Positions 1 to 30,829 of a DNA stretch of 35,468 nucleotides are shown here, piece after piece; within the stretch, counting starts at the first letter, position 1; every line of letters begins with the position of its first letter. A model generated the notes under the pieces. The model did not search any database and was not told the origin of the DNA. It saw only the letters and a list, made by a program, of their open reading frames with translations. The stretch lies in the UHGV virus genome UHGV-0114740, one strand, 5' to 3'. The position numbers and the translations under genes are program-made. This stretch comes from a virus.

Positions 1-18
1 TTACCCTGGCAACCGATT

Positions 19-40
19 GACGGGGGATTGCTCCCCCGTC
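19..40 (-). other. GC-rich hairpin (9-bp stem GACGGGGGA / TCCCCCGTC, loop TTGC) just 3' of the hok-like ORF
   Basis: Perfect inverted repeat seen in sequence 10 nt downstream of the stop codon; could be an mRNA 3' stabilising or terminator structure. No U-tract follows. Confidence 0.35.
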
Positions 41-49
41 GCGGTTTCC

Positions 50-190
50 TTACTGCTTACACTGTAAGAACGCCGCAAACTCCGCTCCCCAGAAGCTTAT
101 CCGTATTTCGCACAGCGAACCGTGCAGCATCCAGATGATGAGGATTGCCGTCACGCAGAACGTGATGGCCGTAAGCGATTTTTGCGACAT
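50..190 (-). CDS. Hok/Gef-family type I toxin-like small membrane protein (46 aa, MSQKSLTAITFCVTAILIIWMLHGSLCEIRISFWGAEFAAFLQCKQ)
   Basis: Own translation of the minus strand; below the ORF-track size cutoff. N-terminal hydrophobic helix then SLCEIR...AAFL.CK, recalling HokA/Hok. SD AGGAG 8 nt upstream of ATG (190..188); stop TAA at 52..50. Confidence 0.55.
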   Translation of the reverse strand: MSQKSLTAITFCVTAILIIWMLHGSLCEIRISFWGAEFAAFLQCKQ

Positions 191-380
191 AGCGCTTGCT
201 CCTTTTTCAGGGAGGCGCTAACCTATCACTTGCTAAGGTTAGACGGTTAGGGCCTCGGTTAAACAGAAATGTTTTCCGGGGCCTTTCCACATCTGGCCTT
301 CGGGTATTCCCTCCGACCATCAGCCGAAAGGCACCCGCGCGTAATCTATCGCTTTTTTGTTACTCCGGCAATTCTGCCTG

Positions 381-641
381 TTAATTCTGAGATAAAGGCA
401 AACTCATCTGATTGTTTCCCCTGTGTGAAGCTGGCAACTCATGCCACGGGATACCTTCTGAAGAGTGAACGCCGGGGGCGTGTTTCGATGTGAATTTATG
501 GAAAGCTTCCAGTGTTGAGAAACTTATGCCGCATTCCAGGTTGTTACACTGGTAATATTTTTTCCGTACGGTGTTTGAATCATTTTCCGAACGACTGGTG
601 CGGATACGGGCAGATGCGCCACAAAGCGGACAACGGAACAT
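381..641 (-). CDS. ogr: Ogr-like zinc-finger late-gene transcriptional activator
   Basis: Translation MFRCPLCGASARIRTSR...YYQCNNLECGISF has the CxxC...CxxxxC arrangement of P2 Ogr; strong SD AAGGGAGG upstream; sits downstream of D as in P2. Confidence 0.8.
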   Translation of the reverse strand: MFRCPLCGASARIRTSRSENDSNTVRKKYYQCNNLECGISFSTLEAFHKFTSKHAPGVHSSEGIPWHELPASHRGNNQMSLPLSQN

Positions 642-683
642 AGCGACCTCCCTTAACGTGGTGCTTCTGCTATTCTAAGTTGC

Positions 684-1793
684 TCACTCTGTTTCTGCTA
701 TCCATTCCGGGATTTTTGCTTCAAGCTCAAGCTGCGTGGTAAAGCCACTGTTATCAATGGTGTGCTCGGCTTTCGCAATAATCCAGTCCTGATTATCAAT
801 CTCGCTTTTAAATCCTGTTACCGTGCCATGCATTTCGGGGTAGAGTTCTGCGCGTCCACGAGCCAGTGTGATGGAGAATGATGCGGCTCCGCGTTGTAGC
901 TGCTGCCACTTTGCCGCCGCTGCGCGTCTTGCTGCCAGCTCGTTCTGATAAGTCTTGCGTAACACAAACACATTGCCATCCGCGCCTTCCATATAGTCAC
1001 CTTCACGGCTGCTGCTTTTCTCCTTTTTGGGTTTTGGCGGTTTACGGCGTTTCACGCTGACTTTTTTCTTTTTCCCGTAATTAAGATCAAGCCAGTAGGC
1101 GCGTACCCCCGTATACGCCTCGCGGTCAGCAATACGGAACTGATGGCGATCGCCGCTGCTGCGTGTAATGGCGAACGAGGGCAACGGCTGGCCCTGTGCG
1201 TTCACGCCACCACCTGGCATGATGAATAACAGATTACCGCTTTTTACCGTGGTGATTGCGCCCAGCATTTCCGCCATGCGCGTAAGGAAGGACATGTCGC
1301 TTTCTTCGGTCTGGTCGGCGTGGTCGATTTCGATATCCATCAGCATTTCGCTGATTTGCGGTTTCAGACCATACCGATGAGCGATGGCGGATACCACACG
1401 CTCAACGGTCACATCATGCCAGGACACCTCACGTTTAACGTTAAATTCATCCCGAAAATCTGCGCTTCTGGCTGAAACAGTCAGCCTGTCCGGCGGTCCT
1501 TCGTGAGCGATTTCATCAACAATGTAAGTGCCTTTTTCTGTCAGCGGTTCCCCTTTCCAGCCAATGAGAACCGTCAGGCGCGCGCCCCGTGGCGGTAGCT
1601 GCAACTGACCATCTGCATCATCCAGCGTGATGGTGAGCTGGTCTGCTTCAAATCCCCGGTTGTCGGTCAGTGACAGGCTCATCAGGCGCTCTGCCACGCC
1701 TGACAGCGTTTTACCCTCCGCGAGAATATCAAAATCCGGCATTTTCACGGGGTCTGTGCCCTGACTGATCAATTGCATGGTGGTGTCGGTCAT
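684..1793 (-). CDS. D: Tail protein D (late control gene D family)
   Basis: Translation contains LTDNRGFEADQLTITLDDADG, SWHD and FLTR blocks matching P2 gpD. Start placed at internal ATG 1793 (MTDTTMQ...) preceded by SD GGGAGGG; the track ORF runs to 1925. Confidence 0.85.
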   Translation of the reverse strand: MTDTTMQLISQGTDPVKMPDFDILAEGKTLSGVAERLMSLSLTDNRGFEADQLTITLDDADGQLQLPPRGARLTVLIGWKGEPLTEKGTYIVDEIAHEGPPDRLTVSARSADFRDEFNVKREVSWHDVTVERVVSAIAHRYGLKPQISEMLMDIEIDHADQTEESDMSFLTRMAEMLGAITTVKSGNLLFIMPGGGVNAQGQPLPSFAITRSSGDRHQFRIADREAYTGVRAYWLDLNYGKKKKVSVKRRKPPKPKKEKSSSREGDYMEGADGNVFVLRKTYQNELAARRAAAAKWQQLQRGAASFSITLARGRAELYPEMHGTVTGFKSEIDNQDWIIAKAEHTIDNSGFTTQLELEAKIPEWIAETE

Positions 1794-1950
1794 CTGTTCC
1801 CTCCCTGTGCGGCATGGTCGCATGTGCGTGCGGAGGGGGTTACTGCTTTTTGTTGTCGCCGGGTCGGGAGAACGGCGCAGGGGTGAGATTACGCGCGTGG
1901 TGGGTGATGATTGTTGCCGAATCATTTAACGGATACAAGGGGCTGAAGCT

Positions 1951-3135
1951 ATGAGTGAAACTCGTTTTCATGGTGCCCGTGTTACGGAAAATACCGACCT
2001 GGTAACAGCGATTAACGATGTTGATTCCAGCGTTATCGGTATCGTGGCAACGGCGGATGATGCGGACGCGAAGCTGTTCCCGCTGAACAAGCCCACATTG
2101 CTGACCCGCGTCAATGACGTGCTGGGAAAATGCGGAACAACGGGGACGCTTTATCGTGCGCTTAAGGCCATCGCAGACCAGGTGAGCACAAAGGTGATCG
2201 TCGTTCGCGTGGCTGAACACAAAGAAGAAGACGGAAAGACGCAGGATCAACTGGTTATCGGTGGTTCTGAGGATGACGGCAGCTATACGGGGATGTATGC
2301 GCTGCTTGTTGCAGAGCAGGATGAAAGCATCGGATACCGTCCGCGTATTCTGGCCGCGCCGGAGCTGGACACGGAGGCTGTAACAAAATCCCTGTGCGTG
2401 ATTGCAGGTAAACTGCGCGCGTTTGTGTATGCCTCATGTCACGGCTGTAACACGATGGCTGAGGCGATTACCTATCGCCAGAAATTCAACGAACGTGAGG
2501 TGATGCTCTTATGGCCGGACTTCATCGCCTACAACCCGAAAAGTGGCAAAAACGAAACGTTCCCCGCGCCTGCCTATGCGTGCGGCCTTCGTGCGTACAT
2601 TGACCATGAGCAGGGGTGGCACAAATCACTGTCCAACGTTCCGGTTAAAAATGTGCTGGGGATGTCGAGGCATGTGTTCTGGTCGTTGCAGGCCGAAGAC
2701 AGCGATGCCAACAGCCTCAACAACAAAGAAATCACGACCATTATTCGTCGCAACGGGTTCCGCTTCTGGGGCAACCGCACACCGGAAACGAACGCCTACA
2801 TCTTTGAGGTGTATACCCGAACCGCACAGGTGCTGGCTGATTCAATTGCGGAAGCGCAGTTTGAAACCATCGACAGTCCACTGACGCCTGCGAACGTGAA
2901 GGATGTTATCAGTGCCATCAGGGCAAAACTGGATTCGCTGGTTACTGCCGGGAAACTGATTGGCGCGGAGTGCTGGTATGACGTGGTGGATAACGGCACC
3001 ACGGATTTACGTCAGGGGCGTGTGCGTATTCGCTACAAATATACGCCCGTTCCGCCACTGGAAGACATGGAGCTTTACCAGACGTTTACTGATGAATTCT
3101 TTGGTCCCGCATTTGCGGTGCTGGGAGGTGCCTGA
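1951..3135 (+). CDS. FI: Contractile tail sheath protein FI
   Basis: 394-aa translation aligns by eye along its length with P2 FI (LRAF.Y..CHGC, LWPDF, EQGWHK.LSNV, RRNGFRFWGNRT, YTPVPPLE). Confidence 0.9.
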   Translation: MSETRFHGARVTENTDLVTAINDVDSSVIGIVATADDADAKLFPLNKPTLLTRVNDVLGKCGTTGTLYRALKAIADQVSTKVIVVRVAEHKEEDGKTQDQLVIGGSEDDGSYTGMYALLVAEQDESIGYRPRILAAPELDTEAVTKSLCVIAGKLRAFVYASCHGCNTMAEAITYRQKFNEREVMLLWPDFIAYNPKSGKNETFPAPAYACGLRAYIDHEQGWHKSLSNVPVKNVLGMSRHVFWSLQAEDSDANSLNNKEITTIIRRNGFRFWGNRTPETNAYIFEVYTRTAQVLADSIAEAQFETIDSPLTPANVKDVISAIRAKLDSLVTAGKLIGAECWYDVVDNGTTDLRQGRVRIRYKYTPVPPLEDMELYQTFTDEFFGPAFAVLGGA

Positions 3136-3647
3136 TGGCTGTACCAAAACATCTTCGCTTTTTTACGTTGTTTGTGGATGGTGAAAACGAAGTGGGTAAA
3201 GTGACATCCGTCACGCCGCCCAAACTGACGCGCAAAACCGACAGCTATCGTGGTGGTGGCATGATGGGGGCGGTAAGTATTGATCTCGGTCTGGACGACT
3301 CCGCGCTTGATGCGAGTTTTGTCATGGGGGGAGCTGTTCGTGCGCTGTTCCTTAAATATGGCGGCACGATTGACGGCACGCTGCTGCGTTTTGCGGGTGA
3401 ATACTACACCGATGCAGAAAGCGATCTGTATGAAATCGAGATGCGCGGACGTGTGACGGAAATTGATATGGGGGAAGCCAAACAGGGCGAAGCCACATCA
3501 CACACTTACGCTGTCAAAAACACCTACTACAAGCTGAGCGTTAACGATCGCCCGCTGTGGGAAATCGACCTGTTGAACCACATCTACCGGAAGGACGGCA
3601 AGGACATTGTGCCTGACCGTATCCGTTCCGCACTTGGGCTTGGCTGA
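3135..3647 (+). CDS. FII: Tail tube protein FII
   Basis: 170 aa, directly downstream of the sheath with ATGA start/stop overlap; size and position match P2 FII. Confidence 0.85.
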   Translation: MAVPKHLRFFTLFVDGENEVGKVTSVTPPKLTRKTDSYRGGGMMGAVSIDLGLDDSALDASFVMGGAVRALFLKYGGTIDGTLLRFAGEYYTDAESDLYEIEMRGRVTEIDMGEAKQGEATSHTYAVKNTYYKLSVNDRPLWEIDLLNHIYRKDGKDIVPDRIRSALGLG

Positions 3648-3701
3648 TAAGTAATATGCAGGCGGCGCAGTGCGTCGCCTCTGACTGAAAGGAGTTTCCT
3701 G

Positions 3702-4067
3702 ATGAAAGAGACGAAAAACATCGATAACGAAAACACGGTCGTTGCTGACACTGTGAAAGAAACCAGTGAGCGTGGCGTAAAACTTACCCAACCAATTGAG
3801 CGAGGCGGCGAAAAAATCACGTATGTGGAGATTACCGGAGCTATTGAGCAGGCTGGATCTCTGCGAGATTTGTCGCTGTCTGATGTGCTGAATCTGAAAG
3901 CGGAATCCATGTTTACGCTGCTGTCACGCGTGACATCACCGCGACTGGATGAAGTGACGATCAAAAAAATGGCATCCCGTGACTTTATTCAGTTATGTGT
4001 GGTTGCCGTAAATTTTTTGAGCGGTGCGGACTCTGGCGGGAAGAACGAACAGGCGACGGAAGCCTGA
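3702..4067 (+). CDS. E: Tail assembly chaperone E (0-frame product)
   Basis: Position between tube and tape-measure genes; SD GGAG upstream; contains a slippery heptamer near its 3' end. Confidence 0.75.
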   Translation: MKETKNIDNENTVVADTVKETSERGVKLTQPIERGGEKITYVEITGAIEQAGSLRDLSLSDVLNLKAESMFTLLSRVTSPRLDEVTIKKMASRDFIQLCVVAVNFLSGADSGGKNEQATEA

Positions 4068-4231
4068 TCACGGTTGTGTGCTTTGAGCACATAGAAGACT
4101 TTGTGGCAGATATTGCCGTTATTTTTAACTGGTCGCCCGCCGAAATCTTCATGATGACGCCCGGCGAAGTGGTTAGCTGGCGTGAGCGGGCGGCACTTCG
4201 CAGCGGGAGTGCAGACAATGAAGACTCTTGA
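3702..4231 (+). CDS. E+E' frameshift fusion product (tail assembly chaperone, long form)
   Basis: Inferred by joining E (3702..4019) to the -1 frame ORF ending at 4231 via the slippery site; not experimentally verifiable here. Confidence 0.5.
4013..4019 (+). other. Candidate -1 programmed ribosomal frameshift site T_TTT_TTG (E to E+E')
   Basis: Heptamer lies in E frame as aaT TTT TTG; the -1 frame continues as the track ORF 3995..4231, which ends inside the start of T, as for P2 E/E'. Confidence 0.6.
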
Positions 4232-7025
4232 TATCCGGGTCGCTTTCAGCGCCGTTGACAGGCTGACCCGGCCTGCCGAAAACGCCCGCCGCCTGATGGG
4301 GCAGTTTGGTGACTCCATCCAGCGAACGCAGGGGGCGATCAAAAATCTCGAGCGTCAGGCGCGTTCATTTGAGCGCGCCCGTGACGCTGTCAGTAAAGCG
4401 GATGCGGGCATCGTGAAAGCACGACGCCAGCTTAACGCCCTTAATCAGTTACAACGCACGGGTACAGTGCTCAGCGAAAAACAACAAAAGCTGATGCAGC
4501 AGTTAAGCACCCGGCTTGAACGCCTGAATGAATCGCGCACGCGGGAAATTCAGAAAATGCGGGAGCTTGGCGGAGAGCTGAAACGCCACGGCATTTCCCT
4601 GACAGGCAGCGATAACACCATCCAGCAGGCCATCAGACGCACCGAACAGTACAACAACCAGCTTGAACGCGAACGGCAGGCGCTTGCGCGTGTAACGCGG
4701 GCGCGTGAGCGGTATTCGCGCGCGCAGGAAACAGCGGGAAAACTGAAAACAGGTGGTGCACTGGCAATTGGTGCGGCAGCGGCGGGCGGCTATGCTGCCG
4801 GGCGTTTTTTGCAGCCTGCGATCGGGTTCGGCAAAGAGATGTCCCGCGTTCAGGCACTGACGCGAATCGACCAGAACAGCCCGCAGTTTAAGGCGCTGCG
4901 TGAGCAGGCGTTAAAACTTGGCTCTGAAACGCAGTTCACCGCAGGCGATGCCGCCAGTGGACAGGCATTTCTTGCAATGGCTGGCTTCACTCCGCAGGCC
5001 ATTCAGGCTGCGCTTCCCGGCGTGCTGAGCATGGCAACGGCTGGCGGTATGGATCTCGGCGAGACGGCAGATATTGGCTCAAATATCCTGACGCAGTTCG
5101 GCCTTTCTGCTGACCAGATGGACCGGGTCGGTGACACACTCACCGCAGCGTTTACCCGTACCAACACTGACCTTCGCGCACTGGGCGAAACCATGAAATA
5201 TGCAGGTCCGGTGGCGGGTAAGCTGGGAATATCGCTGGAGCAGGCCGCAGCGATGGCGGGCGTGCTGGCGAATATGGGCATCAGAGGGAGTGATGCCGGG
5301 ACGGCAATGCGTGCCAGCCTGGCTCGTCTGGCATCACCGCCAAAGGCGGCGGCAGAAGCTCTGAAAGAGCTGGGCGTGTCCGTCTCGGATGCCGGGGGCA
5401 AAATGCGCCCGATGGAAGATCTGCTGGCTGACCTTTATAAAGCTACCCGCAAATACGGGGAAGTTGACCGGGTATCCTTCTTTAAGGACATCGCCGGGGA
5501 AGAGGCTTTCACATCGTTTATGGCACTCGTTGATGCGGCGGGTGACGGTTCCTTACCCAAACTGAGAAAAGAACTTGAGGGCGCACGCGGTGAGGCTGAA
5601 CGCACGGCAAAGGTTATGGCCGACAACCTTGATGGCGACCTGAAAAATCTCGACAGCGCATGGGAAGGTCTTCGTATTCGCATCAGTGATCTGGTTGACG
5701 GTCCGCTGCGTTCTATCACGCAGTGGCTAACACGGGTGGTCTCAAAGGTGACGGTACTGGCGCAGGCCCATCCTGTACTGACGCGCCAGCTACTGATTGC
5801 AGGCGGTGCGCTGCTGGCAGTGACTGCAACCGTAGGCTCATTGGCGCTTGCTCTTGGTGTGCTTGCTGGCCCGCTGGCAAAACTGCGTCTTGGTTTTTCC
5901 CTCCTGATCGGATCAATGAATGCTGTCAGGGTCCTGCCAGCACTATGGGGAATGGTGACGGGTTCCGTTTCTTTGCTGGGAGGTGCTATCGGGGCGCTGT
6001 TCAGTCCGGTTGGTCTTATCGTGGCTGCGCTTGCCGGAGCTGCCATTCTTATCTGGAAATATTGGGATCCCATCAGGGCATTTTTTGCCGGGGTGTTCAG
6101 CGGAATTATGGAAAGGCTGACCCCGTTGCGCGAAACCTTTGAACGGTTTGGTCCTGTTTTTGACGCAATCGGAAGCGGGATCAGCCAGGTGTTTAACTGG
6201 TTTAAATCGCTGTTGTCACCGATGGAGTCCAGCAAGGAAACGCTGGATAAATGCACCAGTGCTGGCGAGGTATTCGGCAACGTTCTTGGTGGCGCGTTAC
6301 AGCTTGTTCTGACGCCAGCAAAAATGTTGCTGGATACGCTGGCGTGGATACTTGAAAAACTCGGTGTGCTTCCGGATGAAGCGGAAAGGGCGAGAAAGAA
6401 AATCGAAGACGCACAGCGTGCGGCCATTCTTCAGGACAAGGTTGCCTTGCTTCAGGGTGACCTGGCGAAAACTAATCCGCCGAAGCCTGTGGAAAATGGC
6501 AATGGCACCGGAGGTGATAAACCCAAAGACAACAAACCGCTCACAGACAGCAATACCGGTACGCTACGCAGACTCAGCAAAATTGCTGATAACACAGGTA
6601 AGCTGGTTGATGAGACGAAAAAACGCATTGGCCCCGGCGATATTGTCTTTAAGAACCTGCCCCGCGCACTTGCCGTTCGTGGGGAGTGGCAGGAGCGGAA
6701 GATTGCGCAGGTCAGTAAGCCTGCCCCCGCAATTAATATCCCGCCTGTGGTTCCGGCCCTGCTGCCTCCGGCGCTGGTCCCTGTTGTTGCGGCCAGCTCC
6801 CGCCCGGTGGCGGAGGCCATACGATCGCCAGTGGCATCAGCCCCAACACCTTCGCGTAACCGGGAACCTGTTGCCTCAGGACTTGGCGGTGAAATTCATG
6901 TTCATCTGCATAACGTTGTTACGCAGAATCCCCGCGAACTGGCGAAACTGGTCGGTGAAATGGTCAGGGCAGAAATGGAACGGCGCGCCCGTGCCGGGCG
7001 TGGCAGTTTTTACGATAAAGATTGA
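4218..7025 (+). CDS. T: Tail tape measure protein T
   Basis: ~940-aa ORF after E/E', coiled-coil-rich N-terminus, hydrophobic middle, Pro/Ala-rich C-terminus. Start placed at MKTLD (4218) with SD GGGAG; the track ORF begins at 4182. Confidence 0.85.
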   Translation: MKTLDIRVAFSAVDRLTRPAENARRLMGQFGDSIQRTQGAIKNLERQARSFERARDAVSKADAGIVKARRQLNALNQLQRTGTVLSEKQQKLMQQLSTRLERLNESRTREIQKMRELGGELKRHGISLTGSDNTIQQAIRRTEQYNNQLERERQALARVTRARERYSRAQETAGKLKTGGALAIGAAAAGGYAAGRFLQPAIGFGKEMSRVQALTRIDQNSPQFKALREQALKLGSETQFTAGDAASGQAFLAMAGFTPQAIQAALPGVLSMATAGGMDLGETADIGSNILTQFGLSADQMDRVGDTLTAAFTRTNTDLRALGETMKYAGPVAGKLGISLEQAAAMAGVLANMGIRGSDAGTAMRASLARLASPPKAAAEALKELGVSVSDAGGKMRPMEDLLADLYKATRKYGEVDRVSFFKDIAGEEAFTSFMALVDAAGDGSLPKLRKELEGARGEAERTAKVMADNLDGDLKNLDSAWEGLRIRISDLVDGPLRSITQWLTRVVSKVTVLAQAHPVLTRQLLIAGGALLAVTATVGSLALALGVLAGPLAKLRLGFSLLIGSMNAVRVLPALWGMVTGSVSLLGGAIGALFSPVGLIVAALAGAAILIWKYWDPIRAFFAGVFSGIMERLTPLRETFERFGPVFDAIGSGISQVFNWFKSLLSPMESSKETLDKCTSAGEVFGNVLGGALQLVLTPAKMLLDTLAWILEKLGVLPDEAERARKKIEDAQRAAILQDKVALLQGDLAKTNPPKPVENGNGTGGDKPKDNKPLTDSNTGTLRRLSKIADNTGKLVDETKKRIGPGDIVFKNLPRALAVRGEWQERKIAQVSKPAPAINIPPVVPALLPPALVPVVAASSRPVAEAIRSPVASAPTPSRNREPVASGLGGEIHVHLHNVVTQNPRELAKLVGEMVRAEMERRARAGRGSFYDKD

Positions 7026-7031
7026 GGAGTC

Positions 7032-7526
7032 ATGGCCATGATGATGATCTACGGCATGTTTGTTTTTGAGCTGCGCACGCTGCCGCATCAGCAGTTACAG
7101 CAAAACAAAAGCTGGCGGCATGTGAAAAATGAACGCGTTAACCGTTCAGCAAGCTGGCAGTATATCGGTGCAGGTGATGATCGCATCGTTCTTTCTGGTG
7201 TGCTTTATCCTGAAATTACAGGTGGCGAAGTGTCGCTGTCGCTGCTGACCACGCAGGCGTATACAGGACGACCCTGGCCTTTGATTGATGGCGTCGGGCA
7301 GATTTACGGCATGTATGTCCTGACCGGAACGAATACGACCCGTTCCGAGTTTGATCGCTACGGTAAGGCGAAAAAGATAGAATTTTCACTGACCCTTGAA
7401 CGCTGTGATGAGGATTTGCGGGAGCGCCTGCAATCCTCATCGTTCAGTGATATGCTGTCCGGCTTCAAAGATAAGGTCACATCCTCCCTTAACAGCGCGG
7501 CCAGCTCCGTTAAAGGGCTGTTTTGA
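7032..7526 (+). CDS. U: Tail protein U
   Basis: 164 aa immediately after T; N-terminus MMMIYGMFVFELRTLPHQQLQ resembles P2 gpU. Confidence 0.8.
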   Translation: MAMMMIYGMFVFELRTLPHQQLQQNKSWRHVKNERVNRSASWQYIGAGDDRIVLSGVLYPEITGGEVSLSLLTTQAYTGRPWPLIDGVGQIYGMYVLTGTNTTRSEFDRYGKAKKIEFSLTLERCDEDLRERLQSSSFSDMLSGFKDKVTSSLNSAASSVKGLF

Positions 7527-7533
7527 TTAACGC

Positions 7534-7563
7534 AAAACCGCTAATGGTCAGATTAGCGGTTTT
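7534..7563. terminator. Probable bidirectional intrinsic terminator between convergent U and invertase genes
   Basis: Perfect 12-bp stem AAAACCGCTAAT / ATTAGCGGTTTT with 6-nt loop, T-run after it on + strand and on the - strand; overlaps the last codons of the invertase. Confidence 0.5.
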
Positions 7564-8152
7564 CATTTTCCTGAGTCTGCCTGGTTGTTTCTTCAGCCTG
7601 TATATCGCCTACAGGGTGATAACGATAAATCGTCGATATGCCGATGTCGTAAATGATCGCCAGTTGTTTCCTGTCATGACCGTTTTTGATCAGCCTTGCT
7701 ATTTGCTCATGCTGTTCTTTTGTCAGCTTCGGGCGACGTCCGCCTGTGCGCCCCCGTGCGCGCGCTGCCGCCAGTCCGGCCAGTGTACGTTCAACAATTA
7801 ATTCACGTTCCATTTCAGCCAGGGCACCCATAACGTGGAAGAAAAAACGCCCCATTGGAGAAGATGTATCTATGCTGTCGGTCAGACTGCGAAAATTAAT
7901 CCCTCGCTCCCGTAGTTCCCCGACGAGAGAAATCAGATGTTTCATGCTTCGCCCGAGGCGATCCAGTTTCCAGACAACCAGCGTGTCACCTTTTTGAAGC
8001 CGCTTTAAAGCGCGTTTTAATCCCGGTCGGTCTGTCTTTGTCCCGCTTAATTTATCTTCAAATATTTGTTCACATCCTGCACAAACAAGAGCGTTTCGTT
8101 GCAGGTCTGTATTCTGGTCATTTGTTGATACCCTTACATAACCAATCAGCAC
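7553..8152 (-). CDS. Serine-recombinase DNA invertase (Gin/Hin/Cin/Pin family)
   Basis: Translation LIGYVRVSTNDQNTDLQRNAL...TLVVWKLDRLGRSMKHL...SLTDSIDTSSPMGRFFFHVMGALAEMERELI is near-identical in blocks to Mu Gin. Start taken as GTG at 8152 after SD GGGAGA; the track uses TTG at 8170. Confidence 0.9.
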   Translation of the reverse strand: MLIGYVRVSTNDQNTDLQRNALVCAGCEQIFEDKLSGTKTDRPGLKRALKRLQKGDTLVVWKLDRLGRSMKHLISLVGELRERGINFRSLTDSIDTSSPMGRFFFHVMGALAEMERELIVERTLAGLAAARARGRTGGRRPKLTKEQHEQIARLIKNGHDRKQLAIIYDIGISTIYRYHPVGDIQAEETTRQTQENENR

Positions 8153-8206
8153 ACTGAATCTCCCGTCCAAAAGCGCAAATCATGCCATGCAGGCCGGAAA
8201 CGGCCA

Positions 8207-8232
8207 TTATCTAAAACCTCGGTTTGCAGGAA
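8207..8232. promoter_or_regulatory. gix/hix-like 26-bp inversion crossover site (left)
   Basis: TTATCTAAAACCTCGGTTTGCAGGAA; its reverse complement matches the site at 11510..11535 at 23/26 positions and resembles the Gin gix site. Confidence 0.65.
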
Positions 8233-9471
8233 ACGGTAAATCTGGCTTCTGGCGCATTACAAAAAAACCAGAACGGCGCGGATATTCCTGATAAGGATCG
8301 CTTCCTGAGTAACATTAATGTTTACAGCAAAGGCGAGGTGGATAAGAAAAAAGGAATGCGGCAGTACGCATTTAATGCGCCGTCTAATGCAGTTGGTGGA
8401 AAGTGGTATCCAGTTATTTTCCGGCGTTCCACAGGCAGCACTGGCGAGCTGGCTTCCAGAGTGATTATAACGACCACATCTGCCAGTGGTGATTACGCAA
8501 TGAATAACTGCGAATTCAATGGAATGGTAATGCCTGGTGGCTGGACTGATCGTGGTTCATATGCGGCAGGTTATTTTTCGACGTATCAGACTAATGAGCG
8601 CGCAATCCATTCCATTGTAACAAGCCTTAAAGAAGATGATGTATGCAGCGTTTTTTACGTTGAAGGCAGGGCTTTTCCTGTGCGAGTTTTTGCCGAAGAA
8701 GGGCTAACGGTTATTGTTCCAACTCAGGATTATACCGTCGGTCAAACAACATATAAGTGGGGAGCAACTAATCCCGCGACAGAAAGCACGAACGCACAAG
8801 CCATTCTGGATTTTAACAATGGGCGAGGGTTTTATTGTTCTCACTCAATATTCGGTATTAATGCCATTTTTAGCGGAAATCTGGGGATTGGAACGGCTAA
8901 TGCCCTGGGGGGAAATTCAATAGTTTTAGGAGATAACGATACTGGGTTTAAACAAAATGGTGATGGGGTGCTGGATGCTTATGCTAATGGTGTGCATGTA
9001 TTCCGCTTTAGAAATGGCTCAGCAATATCATTAAAGGGTATTCAGGCTGGGGAAAGTAAGTTATTCACACTTTCAAGTGCAAATACCGCTGCCCGTAATG
9101 CATCATTTAACTTGTGGGGAAATTCGTCAAGACCAACTGTTGCAGAGCTTGGTGATGATTCAGGCTGGCATTTCTATAGTCAGCGAAATACAGATAACTC
9201 GGTGACATTTGCTGTAAACGGTCAGATACAACCAAGCAACTGGGGTAACATTGATTCCAGATATGTGAAAGATGTTCGGCTTGGCTCACAGCAATATTAT
9301 GGTGTGAACAACTGGCAAACATGGAACTTCCAGTGCCCTTCAGGTCATGTATTGTCTGGTATAAATGTTCAGGATACAGGTTCCAACTCCGCCGATAATA
9401 TTGCGGGTGTTTATTACAGACCCGTTCAAAAGTATATAAATGGCACATGGTATAATGTAGCGAGCGTTTAA
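8224..9471 (+). CDS. Alternative tail-fibre C-terminal cassette (silent in this orientation)
   Basis: Begins [21 protein letters not shown], the same junction peptide found inside H ([21 protein letters not shown]), then diverges; ends ...[11 protein letters not shown] versus H ...INGTWYNAGSI. No independent start expected. Confidence 0.75.
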
Positions 9472-9472
9472 T

Positions 9473-10000
9473 ATGATGCACTTAAAGAACATAAAAGCGG
9501 GTAACGCTAAAACACTGGAACAGTATGAGTTAACAAAGAAGCATGGAGTCATCTGGCTTTACACTGAAGACGGGAAAAACTGGTATGAGGAAGTGAAGAA
9601 CTTTCAGTCAGACACAATAAAGATTGTTTACGATGAAAATAATATTATTGTCGCTATCACCAGAGATGCTTCAACGCTTAATCCTGAAGGTTTTAGCGTT
9701 GTTGAGGTTCCTGATATTACCTCCAACCGACGTGCTGACGACTCAGGTAAATGGATGTTTAAGGATGGTGCTGTGGTTAAACGGATTTATACGGCAGATG
9801 AACAGCAACAACAGGCAGAATCACAAAAGGCCGCGTTACTTTCCGAAGCGGAAAGCGTTATTCAGCCACTGGAACGCGCTGTCAGGCTGAATATGGCGAC
9901 GGATGAGGAATGCGCACGACTGGAGTCATGGGAACGCTACAGTGTTATGGTCAGCCGTGTGGATACGGCAAAGCCCGAATGGCCACAAAAGCCTGAGTAA
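9473..10000 (+). CDS. Tail fibre assembly chaperone, alternative copy
   Basis: 175 aa, [11 protein letters not shown]...; paralogous to the chaperone at 10029..10562 and directly follows the alternative fibre cassette. Confidence 0.8.
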
Positions 10001-10028
10001 AAATTAAGGCCCGATATCAGGCCTTCTC

Positions 10029-10562
10029 TCATTCTGGTTGTTCGGGAAACGTTACTGGCAGGCTGGAAGTGTCTGTAGATTCGACTTTCTGCGCAAAGAG
10101 CATCCACTCTGTTAATTTTTGTTTATTCTCGTCGGAAATGATGCCCAGCCGTAGCTGTGAGTCCCATAGCTGGGTTTTATCCCTGACGAGCTGTAGCAGG
10201 CTTTGCTTTTCATTTTCCGCCTGCTGCCTCTGCTCTTCCTCGGTATAAGTTCGCTTTACCACTACGCCATCTTTGAACATCCATTTACCCGAAATGTCAG
10301 CACGGCGATTTGCTGTAATATCAGGTAATTCAACGACGCTTGCGCCTTCCGGATTAATTGCTGAAACATCCTTTTCAATACAAATAATAACGCCGTTATG
10401 GTCATAGACCATTTTCAAAGTGTCTGGCTGGAAATTCTTTTGTTCCTCATACCAGTTTTTTCCATCCTCTGAATAAAGCCATTTGATGTTAAATTGTTTC
10501 GTTAGCTGGTATTGCTCTTTTGTTTTAGGGTTGCCAGCAGTAATGTTTTTTAAGTGCATCAT
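10029..10562 (-). CDS. Tail fibre assembly chaperone (G-like), expressed copy
   Basis: 177 aa, MMHLKNITAGN...; immediately downstream of H on the same strand, as P2 G follows H. Confidence 0.8.
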   Translation of the reverse strand: MMHLKNITAGNPKTKEQYQLTKQFNIKWLYSEDGKNWYEEQKNFQPDTLKMVYDHNGVIICIEKDVSAINPEGASVVELPDITANRRADISGKWMFKDGVVVKRTYTEEEQRQQAENEKQSLLQLVRDKTQLWDSQLRLGIISDENKQKLTEWMLFAQKVESTDTSSLPVTFPEQPE

Positions 10563-10564
10563 CG

Positions 10565-12799
10565 TTAAATACTCCCCGCGTTATACCACGTCCCATTAAT
10601 GCAATACTGAACTGGCCTTGCCTGAGTTGTATCAATTAATTCATCACGGTTTCCGTTAACTGAACCCGTAACGACATAACCTGACCTGTCAGACCAGCCG
10701 GGACCATTCCATGTCTGAACAGATGACAGACCGCCCAAGCGAATACCTGTAATAAACCTTGAATTACATTCTGCCTGCGTATATGCACCAACATCCCCCG
10801 CAGAGGGTTTGCGGGTTGTGGTGTAAAACTCTGACCAGTTAGCTTCAAAGCCATAACCATCACGCGCTGAACGATAAAAGATACCGCCGTTCCTGTAATT
10901 CACGCGGAACTGTACAGCAGGGCAACTCCCCGCATTCATATTGAAGTGGAGGATTAATGTCGATGCACCACTGATATCTGCATCATAAACACCGCTATTC
11001 CAGTTCCAGCCAACAGCTTTATCATTTGCGACCCTGCGTCCTGTTTGCCCTAAAGCAAATGCAGGCTGCTGGTTTTTCGTGTTGTAGTCTCGTCGCCAGC
11101 CAGGAGCATAAGCATCACCATGATTAATATAGGTGAATTGAGCGTTAGTAATTCCGCCGCCGCTGGACGTACTCGGCGTAGTAACGCGTATGGTCATTGC
11201 GCCGCGAGTGCCAATAACTTCCACCACAGCACCTGCAAGACAAATATTTCCGCAACCTGTATCTGTAATGACCTTATTATTTGCATAAGCCCATGAGCCT
11301 TTGCACATCCAGTAAGGATGGTTAAATGCCCCCTGACTCTCCAGCCACGAAATAAATTGCGCAGTTGTCCAGACCTGACTATCGCCACCAATATTCAGCC
11401 ATGCGCTATATGCGCGGCAGGCACCAATGTTTTTGGTGAAGGTATCTTTACCCGGAATATCTGCGCCGTTCTGGTTTTTCTGTAATGCGCCAGAAGCCTG
11501 ATTTACCGTTTCCTGTAAACCGAGGTATTCGATAACGGCAGCAACGGTCGATTTCGCAAGAATATCCCGCCCGACTTTTGTCAGGGTTGCCAGGCTGGCG
11601 ACATCATTCCCCGTAAAATACGGAAACCTGTCTGCCGCAGTAGCAAGCCCGGCCAGCGCCGTCAGGGTGGCATCTTTCGGTTGCTTACCCGCAAGCGCGT
11701 TAGTCATGGTGGTCGCAAAATTCGGGTCGTTTCCCAGCGCCGCCGCTAACTTGTTCAGCGTATTCAGTGCGTCAGGTGACGAATCTACAAGGGCGGCAAT
11801 CGCAGCCATAACGAAAGCCGTGCTTGCGATTTGGGTATTATTCGTTCCCTGTCGCGCAGTTGGCGTTGTTGGCGTTCCGGTCAGCGCAGGACTGTTTAAA
11901 GGCGCTTTCTTGTTCGTTTCATCCATTACCGCCTTAACCGCTTTTGGTGTCGCAGCCAGCGTTTCAGACGGGCTGTTAGTGGCGCTACTGAGCTGAACTA
12001 TCCCTTTTCGTGCCGTCGTTGCGTCCTGAGCGGTATATTTTGCGTTAGCAAGGTCATATGCCGCCTTTACTGCTTTCGGCGTTGCAGCCTGCGTTTCAGA
12101 CGTGCTGTTGGTTGCACTGCTGAGCTGGACTATCCCTTTTCGTGCCGTCGTGGCGTCCTGAGCGGTATATTTTCCGTTAGCCAGGTCATACGCGGCCTTA
12201 ACCGCTTTCGGCGTTGCGGCCAGCGTTTCAGAATCGCTGTTAGTGGCGCTACTGAGTTGAACAAAGCCTTTTGCGGTCAGCGAGGCATCCGGGTGACGTC
12301 GTGACTGTTCATGCTCTTTCAGTTTGTCATCCACGTAATCCACTGTGGCCATCACCATGGTGTTATCCACGGTAAGCGCCACGCTGGCAGTGCTGGATAC
12401 GGTCAGAATGGTGCGAAATGTTTGTGCACGTCCGGACCCCTCGGCAACGGTTGGCTTGTAACTTTCGGCAGTATTGCCCACCGCGATTAAATCGCCGTGC
12501 TCATCAAATACACCAATTTCCCGGATCCAGAATCCGCCCGTTTCAGGAGGTATAACCAGCTCCGCAATAATGCGGTTCTGATGTGTTGCGTCCAGGATGA
12601 CGCGATTAACAGTGTGTCGCCACACCTCATGCACCAGACGGGTCTGCTTACTGTCTGGTGTGGGCAACGTGCCGCCACCGTCGCCCACGGCCATATGAGT
12701 CAGGCGGACAGGCTTACCATCTGGCGCGGCTGCCTGAGCTAATTTTTTTGCACCTGTATCGGTGATAACGGTTTTAAATTTTCGTGTTGTGGTACTCAT
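10565..12799 (-). CDS. H: Tail fibre protein H (constant N-terminal part plus currently joined variable C-terminal cassette)
   Basis: 744 aa; internal tandem fibre repeats; the C-terminal ~315 aa lie inside the invertible segment. Confidence 0.9.
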   Translation of the reverse strand: MSTTTRKFKTVITDTGAKKLAQAAAPDGKPVRLTHMAVGDGGGTLPTPDSKQTRLVHEVWRHTVNRVILDATHQNRIIAELVIPPETGGFWIREIGVFDEHGDLIAVGNTAESYKPTVAEGSGRAQTFRTILTVSSTASVALTVDNTMVMATVDYVDDKLKEHEQSRRHPDASLTAKGFVQLSSATNSDSETLAATPKAVKAAYDLANGKYTAQDATTARKGIVQLSSATNSTSETQAATPKAVKAAYDLANAKYTAQDATTARKGIVQLSSATNSPSETLAATPKAVKAVMDETNKKAPLNSPALTGTPTTPTARQGTNNTQIASTAFVMAAIAALVDSSPDALNTLNKLAAALGNDPNFATTMTNALAGKQPKDATLTALAGLATAADRFPYFTGNDVASLATLTKVGRDILAKSTVAAVIEYLGLQETVNQASGALQKNQNGADIPGKDTFTKNIGACRAYSAWLNIGGDSQVWTTAQFISWLESQGAFNHPYWMCKGSWAYANNKVITDTGCGNICLAGAVVEVIGTRGAMTIRVTTPSTSSGGGITNAQFTYINHGDAYAPGWRRDYNTKNQQPAFALGQTGRRVANDKAVGWNWNSGVYDADISGASTLILHFNMNAGSCPAVQFRVNYRNGGIFYRSARDGYGFEANWSEFYTTTRKPSAGDVGAYTQAECNSRFITGIRLGGLSSVQTWNGPGWSDRSGYVVTGSVNGNRDELIDTTQARPVQYCINGTWYNAGSI
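11510..11535. promoter_or_regulatory. gix/hix-like 26-bp inversion crossover site (right, inside H)
   Basis: TTCCTGTAAACCGAGGTATTCGATAA, inverted relative to the site at 8207..8232; encodes the conserved junction EYLGLQETV. Confidence 0.65.
11929..12271 (-). repeat. Three tandem ~105-bp coding repeats in the tail fibre gene
   Basis: Protein repeats KG(F/I)VQLSSATNS.SET.AATPKAVKAAYDLAN.KYTAQDATTAR x3, visible as near-identical DNA blocks. Confidence 0.8.
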
Positions 12800-20218: not shown

Positions 20219-21088
20219 TCAGAAGTCAGCCAGCTGGTCGGAGGCTGCGCCCGTTGCGGTGAAGCGGTTCTGCGGATCGCCGTCCTGCGTGCGCAGTTTT
20301 TCCTTCAGTGCTGTCAGCTCTGTGGTCAGTGACGTGATTTTCTGGCGGTCCTGCTGATGGCGGGTTTCCAGCACATTAAAACGGTCGATAATGTCGGCCT
20401 GTGACGTTGCGACGCCTTCCACCGCTTCCTGAATACGGGAGAAACTGGCGTCATCCGCTTTGCGGCCACGACCAATAATCCCCATTACGCGGTTAAACCA
20501 CTGGGTGCCTTCTTCCTGGCGTTGTTCTGCCATTTCGATGATTTCAGACTCGATGGCTTCGGAAATGAGCGGTGCTTCACCCTGGACACTGTTGAACGTC
20601 ATCACCGCCTGACGTTGCTGTGCCGTGAATTTCAGGCGCTCAGTGCCCAGGCTTGCCGGGGTGTCGGTCATCGCCAGCCCGACCAGATAGGCGCGCCCGT
20701 TAACGGAGAACTGCGGGTGCAGTTCGATACTGGAATAGATTTTCTTGCCGTCCGCGACAAGCTGCTTCATGCGCTCGGTCGGTTCGATTTCTGCATACAG
20801 CGCAGTACGTCCGGCCAGCGGACCTTCCGTAATGTCTTCCGTACTCAGTGCGGTGACATCGCCCATTGCGGAAAATTCGCTTGACGGGCATGGCGAGAGA
20901 TAGTGCTCAACGTTCACGCGGGCAGCGTAAACATCCGGGTTGAAGTTCTCGGCGGCTTCACGCAGATGCACCGGACTGATTTCACGGCCATCAACAGTTG
21001 ATCCGGAGACAGCCACGCGAAACTTTTTGCGGGATGTCTTTTTTTCATTAGCCATAGTTTTTGCCCCTCTGACTGGTTCTTCAGTCAT
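20219..21088 (-). CDS. O: Capsid scaffolding protein O
   Basis: 289 aa, acidic/coiled-coil C-terminus; upstream of N and divergent from P, as in P2. Confidence 0.8.
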   Translation of the reverse strand: MTEEPVRGAKTMANEKKTSRKKFRVAVSGSTVDGREISPVHLREAAENFNPDVYAARVNVEHYLSPCPSSEFSAMGDVTALSTEDITEGPLAGRTALYAEIEPTERMKQLVADGKKIYSSIELHPQFSVNGRAYLVGLAMTDTPASLGTERLKFTAQQRQAVMTFNSVQGEAPLISEAIESEIIEMAEQRQEEGTQWFNRVMGIIGRGRKADDASFSRIQEAVEGVATSQADIIDRFNVLETRHQQDRQKITSLTTELTALKEKLRTQDGDPQNRFTATGAASDQLADF

Positions 21089-21209
21089 GATGGCAAAGCG
21101 TAACAGGCTGATACAAAGGGCTTTTGTTGTAAGAAAACGGCCAGAACAGGGGGTTAAGGAGAACGGTTTCGCGCGCGGGTAATCTTCCTGTAATTACTCA
21201 GGGGGAGCA

Positions 21210-30507: not shown

Positions 30508-30829
30508 GGTGTGGCCTCTTTGCTCGGTGATAGAAATAACTCACCATCCAGAGTTGAGAATCTCGGGGTGGCGAGACGTACAGGGTTCTCAACACCGGAG
30601 AGCAAAGAATCCGGCCCGACCGAAGTCGGCCCCGTACGCCCCGCCATAATTCTGACGCGAAAAAGACGTGGCAATACAGTACGCACAAAAAAACCGCTTG
30701 CGCGGTTATGCGCTTTGCTCTGTATCGGGTTGAGAATCCCGGCACCCGTTTTATGAGGTGCAGCGGAAATGTAACCTGACCGATTGAGGCATGGCAAGCG
30801 GTTTTTTTGTGTGTGCATGTTCTGGTTTC

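Follow-up and report, generated by a model that had tools for sequence, protein, structure and literature searches.

Why do the tail genes FI to U of the virus genome UHGV-0114740 lie on the strand opposite to its other late genes, and how is the tail gene D expressed in such an arrangement? The stretch analyzed here (35,468 nucleotides, referred to below as the window) is, by its sequence, a P88-like prophage (Xuanwuvirus, Peduoviridae). In the annotated P2 record, FI, FII, E, E', T, U, D and ogr lie on one strand, which they share with the genes from O to G (the O and V operons). In the window, FI, FII, E/E', T and U (1951–7526) are on the plus strand, with D, ogr and the head and baseplate genes on the minus strand. 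The flipped block is real and ordinary: it is a fixed, inherited gene order, neither a fresh rearrangement nor an assembly error. Its best explanation as a whole, to which we assign a probability of roughly three in four, is an ancestral inversion in place, since fixed, after which one box for the late activator Ogr would serve both the FI promoter (pF) and a new D promoter (pD).

Gene identities in the window were taken from an open reading frame (ORF) map, Pfam scans and a PHROG scan. Comparisons with P2 used its annotated record and pairwise protein comparisons, and relatives were read from their annotations, ORF lists and hand-copied spacer sequences. The features of the locus are as follows.

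381–641, minus strand: ogr, late activator (86 amino acids, zinc finger); Pfam Ogr_Delta, E 1e-15; 40% identical to P2 Ogr.
684–1793, minus strand: D, tail/baseplate hub protein; Pfam Phage_GPD, phrog_52; 49% identical to P2 gpD.
1794–1950, both strands: divergent D–FI spacer, 157 base pairs (bp).
1951–3135, plus strand: FI, tail sheath; Pfam Phage_sheath_1 and two more sheath domains; 45% identical to P2 FI.
3135–3647, plus strand: FII, tail tube; Pfam Phage_tube, E 2e-45.
3702–4067, plus strand: E, tail assembly chaperone; phrog_103 tail protein.
3702–4231, plus strand: E+E' chaperone, by -1 frameshift at T_TTT_TTG (4013–4019); Pfam Phage_P2_GpE in the -1 frame.
4182 or 4218 to 7025, plus strand: T, tape measure; Pfam PhageMin_Tail, E 7e-58, and P88 annotation.
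7032–7526, plus strand: U, tail protein and last gene of the inverted block; Pfam Phage_P2_GpU, E 1.5e-38; 46% identical to P2 gpU.
7534–7563, both strands: predicted intrinsic terminator hairpin with a 12-bp stem, preceded by an A-tract and followed by a T-tract (terminator scan).
7553–8170, minus strand: Gin/Hin-type serine invertase; Pfam Resolvase and HTH_7.

As in a P2-type F operon, FI and FII stand at the head of the block and an E/E' -1 frameshift precedes the tape measure gene; the slippery heptamer sits in the E reading frame, and T probably starts at ATG 4218, as P88 is annotated. D, however, which in the P2-type operon is the last gene, following T and U on the same strand, here lies on the minus strand and diverges from FI. 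The mechanical ORF of D extends to 1925. The P88 annotation uses the ATG at 1793, with which the relatives agree, and a Shine–Dalgarno sequence, GGGAGGG, is found five bases upstream of it (1799–1805). The spacer length of 157 bp follows from taking D from this ATG. At the other end of the block, the hairpin at 7534–7563 overlaps the final codons of the invertase gene and folds on both strands, with energies of -18.6 kcal/mol (plus) and -16.9 kcal/mol (minus) and z-scores of -2.2 and -3.0, respectively, consistent with a two-way intrinsic terminator for the FI–U operon and the invertase gene. A reading made previously from the letters of this DNA (the sequence-only reading) had described the FI–U block as turned around with respect to D, ogr and the remaining late operons, D and FI as divergent across 157 bp, and U and the invertase as convergent on a bidirectional terminator. 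The ORF layout, the Pfam and PHROG matches, the P2 record and the folding of the hairpin bear out this description, the spacer length with D started at 1793. Two overlapping reverse-strand candidates were dropped as spurious: the reverse ORFs over the spacer (1840–2250) had no Pfam or PHROG family match, and an antisense ORF of 330 amino acids within T (5435–6427, minus strand, ATG start), which had no PHROG or family match either, is most likely a by-product of GC-rich coding sequence.

The same layout was found throughout the close relatives. Between P88 and positions 1–8300 of the window, the only part compared, the identity was 96.2% with 100% coverage in one colinear piece, and P88, Xuanwuvirus P884B11, Citrobacter phage phiSM (Shae_phiSM), PhiR44_2, Chuche and others matched at 94–96% over the same interval, each as a single colinear piece. 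In all, 13 phage records and 1107 of 5426 complete Escherichia coli genomes were colinear with these 8300 positions, with identities of 94–98% across the Xuanwuvirus phages and the matching genomes. P88 and the other members of Xuanwuvirus have the gene order ogr (minus), D (minus), FI–U (plus), invertase (minus), as does the window, and differ from it only by small indels and by the allele of the tail fiber segment. We also constructed a synthetic canonical junction, fusing the 5' end of D to the reverse-complemented 3' end of U, and searched for it in the same E. coli genomes. Both halves were present in 1419 genomes, none of which had them joined. The orientation is thus fixed.

These results leave practically no chance that FI–U was flipped by a misassembly of this sequence. 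The idea had been prompted only by the departure from the P2 order, and we found no support for it. The order recurs in single colinear matches in the complete genomes and phage records just described, and again in independently sequenced phages of five other lineages (below), the canonical junction is absent, D has a Shine–Dalgarno sequence and ATG of its own, and the spacer is conserved. The sequence-only reading had favored a natural arrangement over misassembly and had proposed a comparison with P2 and related prophages, in which relatives with FI–U in the canonical orientation would have argued for an assembly inversion. The comparison upheld its view: the order differs from that of P2 and matches that of P88 and related lineages, and the canonical U–D junction was found in 0 of the 1419 genomes. 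Furthermore, P88 and phiSM are viable and form plaques (PMC5285337, PMC6456863), and the inverted layout therefore works. The layout can in fact be seen in public genome annotations, such as that of P88. The papers on P88, phiSM and SEN4/5 are silent on the inversion, and no paper discussing it was found in a literature search that missed most subscription journals.

How far back does the inversion reach? A search for relatives' loci with D alone returned only relatives 98–99% identical, and was uninformative on divergence. When D was instead compared by tblastn with the phage collection, 48 records matched at 62.7% identity or more and the remainder at 52.7% or less, and FI showed the same split and the same identity gap. 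The block and D have therefore diverged together. In all records opened above the gap, U-T-E-FII-FI diverges from D:

Senquatrovirus SEN5: inverted layout.
Reginaelenavirus Kp4871-3: inverted layout.
Reipivirus Kp4850-1 and ST16-OXA48phi5.4: inverted layout.
Novemvirus phiT5282H: inverted layout.
Serratia phage KSP20 (fragment): inverted layout.

All records opened below the gap were canonical (Kapieceevirus, Burkholderia AP3, Ralstonia RSA1, Vibrio MAR and Escherichia ECOO78). The sister genera (phiT5282H, 3LV2017/Kp4871-3, Reipivirus, SEN4/5 and KSP20) have a spacer of 151–157 bp with the same box, and their D proteins are 63–77% identical to that of the window; unlike the window, they have no invertase adjoining U, and they carry different cargo at both junctions. 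The layout is thus not peculiar to the window; judging by this distribution, it is the gene order ancestral to at least six lineages of Peduoviridae. The simplest reading is that one inversion occurred in the common ancestor of the group at or above 62.7% identity.

In the sequence of events that we propose, a segment comprising pF and FI-FII-E/E'-T-U would have been inverted in place in the common ancestor with the sister genera, severing D from the end of a P2-type F operon, and the inverted order would afterwards have become fixed. In Kapieceevirus, the canonical sister, U and D overlap as GTGA, which is likely to be the ancestral state; D would have gained its own ribosome-binding site and ATG in place of this overlapping stop/start coupling to U. 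A different route to the same gene order would be the import of FI–U from another phage as a module inserted in reverse, replacing the original FI–U. Tailed phages exchange modules, and both ends of the block adjoin cargo slots. This route nevertheless appears improbable, since identities to the P2 counterparts are similar for FI, U, D, O and Ogr (45, 46, 49, 37 and 40%, respectively), FI and D share one clade structure and one identity gap when compared with the phage collection, and the FI-side promoter geometry, described below, equals that of P2 pF. Inversion in place is more likely than the arrival of a foreign block, because FI and D share one pattern of divergence and all of the proteins are about equally far from P2.

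The invertase gene (7553–8170) abuts the inverted block, and such enzymes can act on quasi-sites, so that a flip of FI–U by the Gin-like invertase, either as a second invertible segment or through secondary gix sites, had to be weighed. A scan of the whole window for gix-like sites with up to three mismatches gave exactly two, where none is expected by chance:

8207–8232, plus strand: gix-like crossover site at the left end of the invertible tail fiber segment, 2 mismatches to Mu gix.
11510–11535, minus strand: gix-like crossover site at the right end of the tail fiber segment, inside H (gix scan, inverted repeat).

Both flank the tail fiber segment. No further gix-like site with up to three mismatches was found in the window, weaker quasi-sites falling outside the scan. 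The only long inverted repeats were those of the tail fiber segment (the site at 8207–8232 corresponds to inverted repeat I2), and none joined the D–FI spacer (1794–1950) to the junction between U and the invertase (7527–7563). The FI–U block thus has no crossover sites of about 26 bp at its ends, and no second orientation was seen among the 1419 genomes. The invertase was also absent from the U junction in SEN5, Kp4871-3, Kp4850-1, phiT5282H and ST16-OXA48phi5.4, all of which have the inversion. Finally, the gin region with the adjoining crossover site (7773–8288) is 92–96% identical in nucleotide sequence to gin of Mu and D108, suggesting that it was acquired recently; the invertase module looks like a recent transfer into a prophage that is otherwise only distantly P2-like. 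We accordingly give hardly any credence to a flip by this enzyme: judged by its sites and its distribution, the Mu-like invertase did not cause the inversion, and the evidence indicates that it was inserted later, independently of the flip, into a cargo slot that is filled by Z/fun in P2.

The invertible segment (8207–11535) itself encodes two alternative fiber ends with their assembly proteins, one on the plus strand (8224–9471 and 9473–10000) and the other on the minus strand (10029–10562 and the 3' end of H). In the state represented by the window, the minus-strand set is joined to H. The junction between the tail fiber genes and U (7527–8206 in the window) is one of two cargo slots next to the block and corresponds to P2 Z/fun. 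It is occupied by the invertase in the window, by a DUF262 gene and a hypothetical gene in ST16-OXA48phi5.4 (locus L093, 1–1160) and by an ORF of 452 amino acids in Kp4850-1 (locus L086, 2548–3906), and is empty in SEN5. At the G–U junction of relatives, scans detected a terminator in phiT5282H and Kp4871-3 but not in SEN5.

If the inversion is ancestral, how is D transcribed? Upstream of D on its own strand there are only 5.6 kb of antisense FI–U and the terminator, and D therefore needs a promoter in the spacer, as the sequence-only reading had maintained for 1794–1950. The spacers of six lineages, all 151–157 bp long and with conserved islands, were aligned on the single strongly conserved island. 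The alignment, together with the spacing of the elements, suggested the following features in the window.

1854–1871, centre 1862.5: putative late-activator (Ogr) box, TGT-N12-AGA, preceded by a conserved CTTTTTGTTGT.
1906–1911, plus strand: -10-like hexamer GATGAT of the predicted FI promoter pF, with a predicted start near 1918; its columns are conserved across four genera.
1814–1819, minus strand: -10-like hexamer GACCAT of the predicted D promoter pD, with a predicted start near 1807.

Each spacer has one box. It reads TGT-N12-ACA in KSP20, Kp4871-3 and SEN5, and TCT-N12-ACA on the D strand (TGT-N12-AGA on the plus strand of the window) in the window, phiT5282H and Kp4850-1. TGT-N12-ACA is given as the consensus of four P2 late promoters in the passage of PMC3931495 that cites Christie and Calendar 1985 and Julien and Calendar 1995. 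Across the six lineages, the center of the box lies 81.5–88.5 bp from the FI ATG, compared with 83 bp for P2 pF, and 68.5–76.5 bp from the D ATG. Both -10-like hexamers in the window lie in conserved columns of the alignment and end 48.5 bp from the box center; the hexamer aligned with that of pD reads AACCAT, AATCAT or GACGAT in the relatives, where it follows a conserved CGCGCGCGCATG. In the canonical Kapieceevirus, a perfect TGT-N12-ACA box is found 78.5 bp before FI, directly after a terminator, an arrangement that is likely to be ancestral as well. All relatives have, on the D side, a CGCGCG(CG) run separating the -10-like hexamer from the box; on the D side of the window it is degenerate (1820–1835). 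The run also occurs on the FI side of the window (1892–1897) and on the P side of its P–O spacer (21170–21177).

We propose that the flip placed the dyad-symmetric Ogr box of pF 68–77 bp upstream of D. This single box, about 55 bp from each start, would activate the divergent pF, whose FI–U transcript would end at 7534–7563, as well as the new pD, which would read D and probably ogr. On this view, FI–U and D–ogr would be transcribed divergently under the control of a single Ogr site; Ogr binding to the box, both transcription starts and the co-transcription of D and ogr are predictions from the spacer sequences.

There is a precedent for such a site. P2 has one annotated activator site (3057–3087) for both pP and pO, whose mapped starts are 56 and 55 bp from its center, and the pO hexamer GAAACT ends 48 bp from the center. 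The P–O spacer of the window itself has a box of the same variant as that between D and FI:

21128–21145: putative Ogr box of the P–O spacer, TGT-N12-AGA.

Around this box, TAATCT on the P side (21180–21185) ends 48.5 bp and CATCAT on the O side (21092–21087) 49.5 bp from the center. On the O side, the geometry fits only if O starts at its second ATG (21055). The longest ORF of O starts at 21088; in this region (21053–21088), the alignment to P2 gpO and a ribosome-binding site, GAGGGG, point to the ATG at 21055, and the longer start would put the predicted pO start inside the O gene.

With the inversion still ancestral, D might instead be read from a separate promoter, either constitutive or under a different factor, located in the spacer or antisense within the FI coding region. 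In favor of this, the -10-like hexamers on the D side are weak and differ from one lineage to another, there is a conserved D-side CGCGCGCG-CATG element with no known role, and P2 ogr has its own non-late promoter according to the P2 annotation. A scan for the sigma-70 consensus, however, found no promoter inside 1794–1950, the distance from the box to D is held at 68.5–76.5 bp in six lineages even though the adjacent N-terminus of D diverges, and the arrangement mirrors the pP/pO pair both of P2 and of this prophage. We regard a separate promoter as rather unlikely.

Several points weigh against an ancestral in-place inversion with a shared Ogr box. Inversion in place is not strictly distinguishable from an ancient replacement of the module in reverse orientation. 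The proposed box, its two -10 elements and both starts are themselves predictions from sequence. One half-site in the window is off consensus (AGA instead of ACA), and TTGT-N12-ACAA with one mismatch was not enriched in the window (15 found versus 16.6 expected), so that the argument for the box rests on its position and its conservation across lineages. The -10-like hexamers are weak matches, of a kind that arises easily by chance, though weak matches are to be expected of activator-dependent promoters. On the D side, the leader would be only about 14 nucleotides long.

It is an evenly balanced question, in our judgment, whether the inversion went on to create a fifth late unit, consisting of D, any cargo between D and ogr, and ogr, driven from the back of the pF activator box. 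If so, the two parts of the split tail operon would both answer to a single symmetric Ogr site, ogr would come under direct positive feedback, and defense cargo between D and ogr would acquire a late-induced promoter. The locus would then provide a worked example of how dyad-symmetric activator sites can allow an inversion to split an operon without loss of regulation.

In related E. coli prophages, the junction between D and ogr serves as a cargo slot, with a gene for a GmrSD-domain endonuclease in one and a PIN-domain gene in another (locus L094, 1199–2782, and locus L095, 1027–2097, respectively). In the window, this junction is only 42 bp long (642–683), without a defense-type gene. In the same related prophages, the RefSeq annotation gives D as 801 nucleotides (VgrG/Pvc8 family) with a partial pseudo-ORF of 93 nucleotides upstream (L094, 3134–3987; L095, 2270–3123). 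About 300 nucleotides of the D frame are thus left uncalled, reflecting either a start-site problem or a frameshift in these strains.

For annotation, the consequence is that an FI–U block on the strand opposite to that of D is no reason to mark a P2-like prophage as misassembled or degraded: Xuanwuvirus and at least five related lineages normally have this order, which is found in about one-fifth of complete E. coli genomes. The inverted layout also offers a simple marker for the clade. The symmetric Ogr box appears to have let an essential tail gene leave its operon and yet stay under late control. The understanding of P2-like phages is unchanged by these findings, and the proposed sharing of one Ogr box by FI–U and D is the only new element of the analysis.

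Two other observations were made away from the block. Rfam identified a C4 antisense RNA at 30564–30651 (minus strand, 78.5 bits) beside an isrK RNA at 30687–30761 (minus strand, 63.1 bits); C4 antisense RNA is part of the P1 and P7 immunity system. A hok/gef-type toxin gene (about 50–190, minus strand), MokW-like in the P88 annotation (locus L001, 747–887), lies past ogr at the left end of the window; this stretch also has about 80% identity to Stx-converting phages.

Compared with known systems, the invertase and its two gix sites are of the same type as Mu gin and the Mu G segment, and likewise flank alternative tail fiber ends. The Mu system acts on tail fibers, whereas FI–U has neither crossover sites nor orientation polymorphism. 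The slot that holds Z/fun in P2 is taken in the window by this Mu-type invertase. The inverted block and D otherwise retain the marks of the P2 F operon: all seven gene products are 40–49% identical to those of P2, the E/E' -1 frameshift occurs on TTTTTTG, ogr follows D, and a putative Ogr box of the TGT-N12 type lies about 83–88 bp before FI, at a distance like that of P2 pF. Unlike in P2, D stands outside the operon, divergent from FI; it has a ribosome-binding site of its own and must be served by its own promoter. The closest parallel to the proposed arrangement is the pP/pO pair of P2. Although that pair has been mapped experimentally and serves head genes, while the FI/D pair is predicted from sequence, both have a single dyad box midway in a spacer of 120–170 bp between divergent late genes, with starts, mapped or predicted, about 55 bp to each side.

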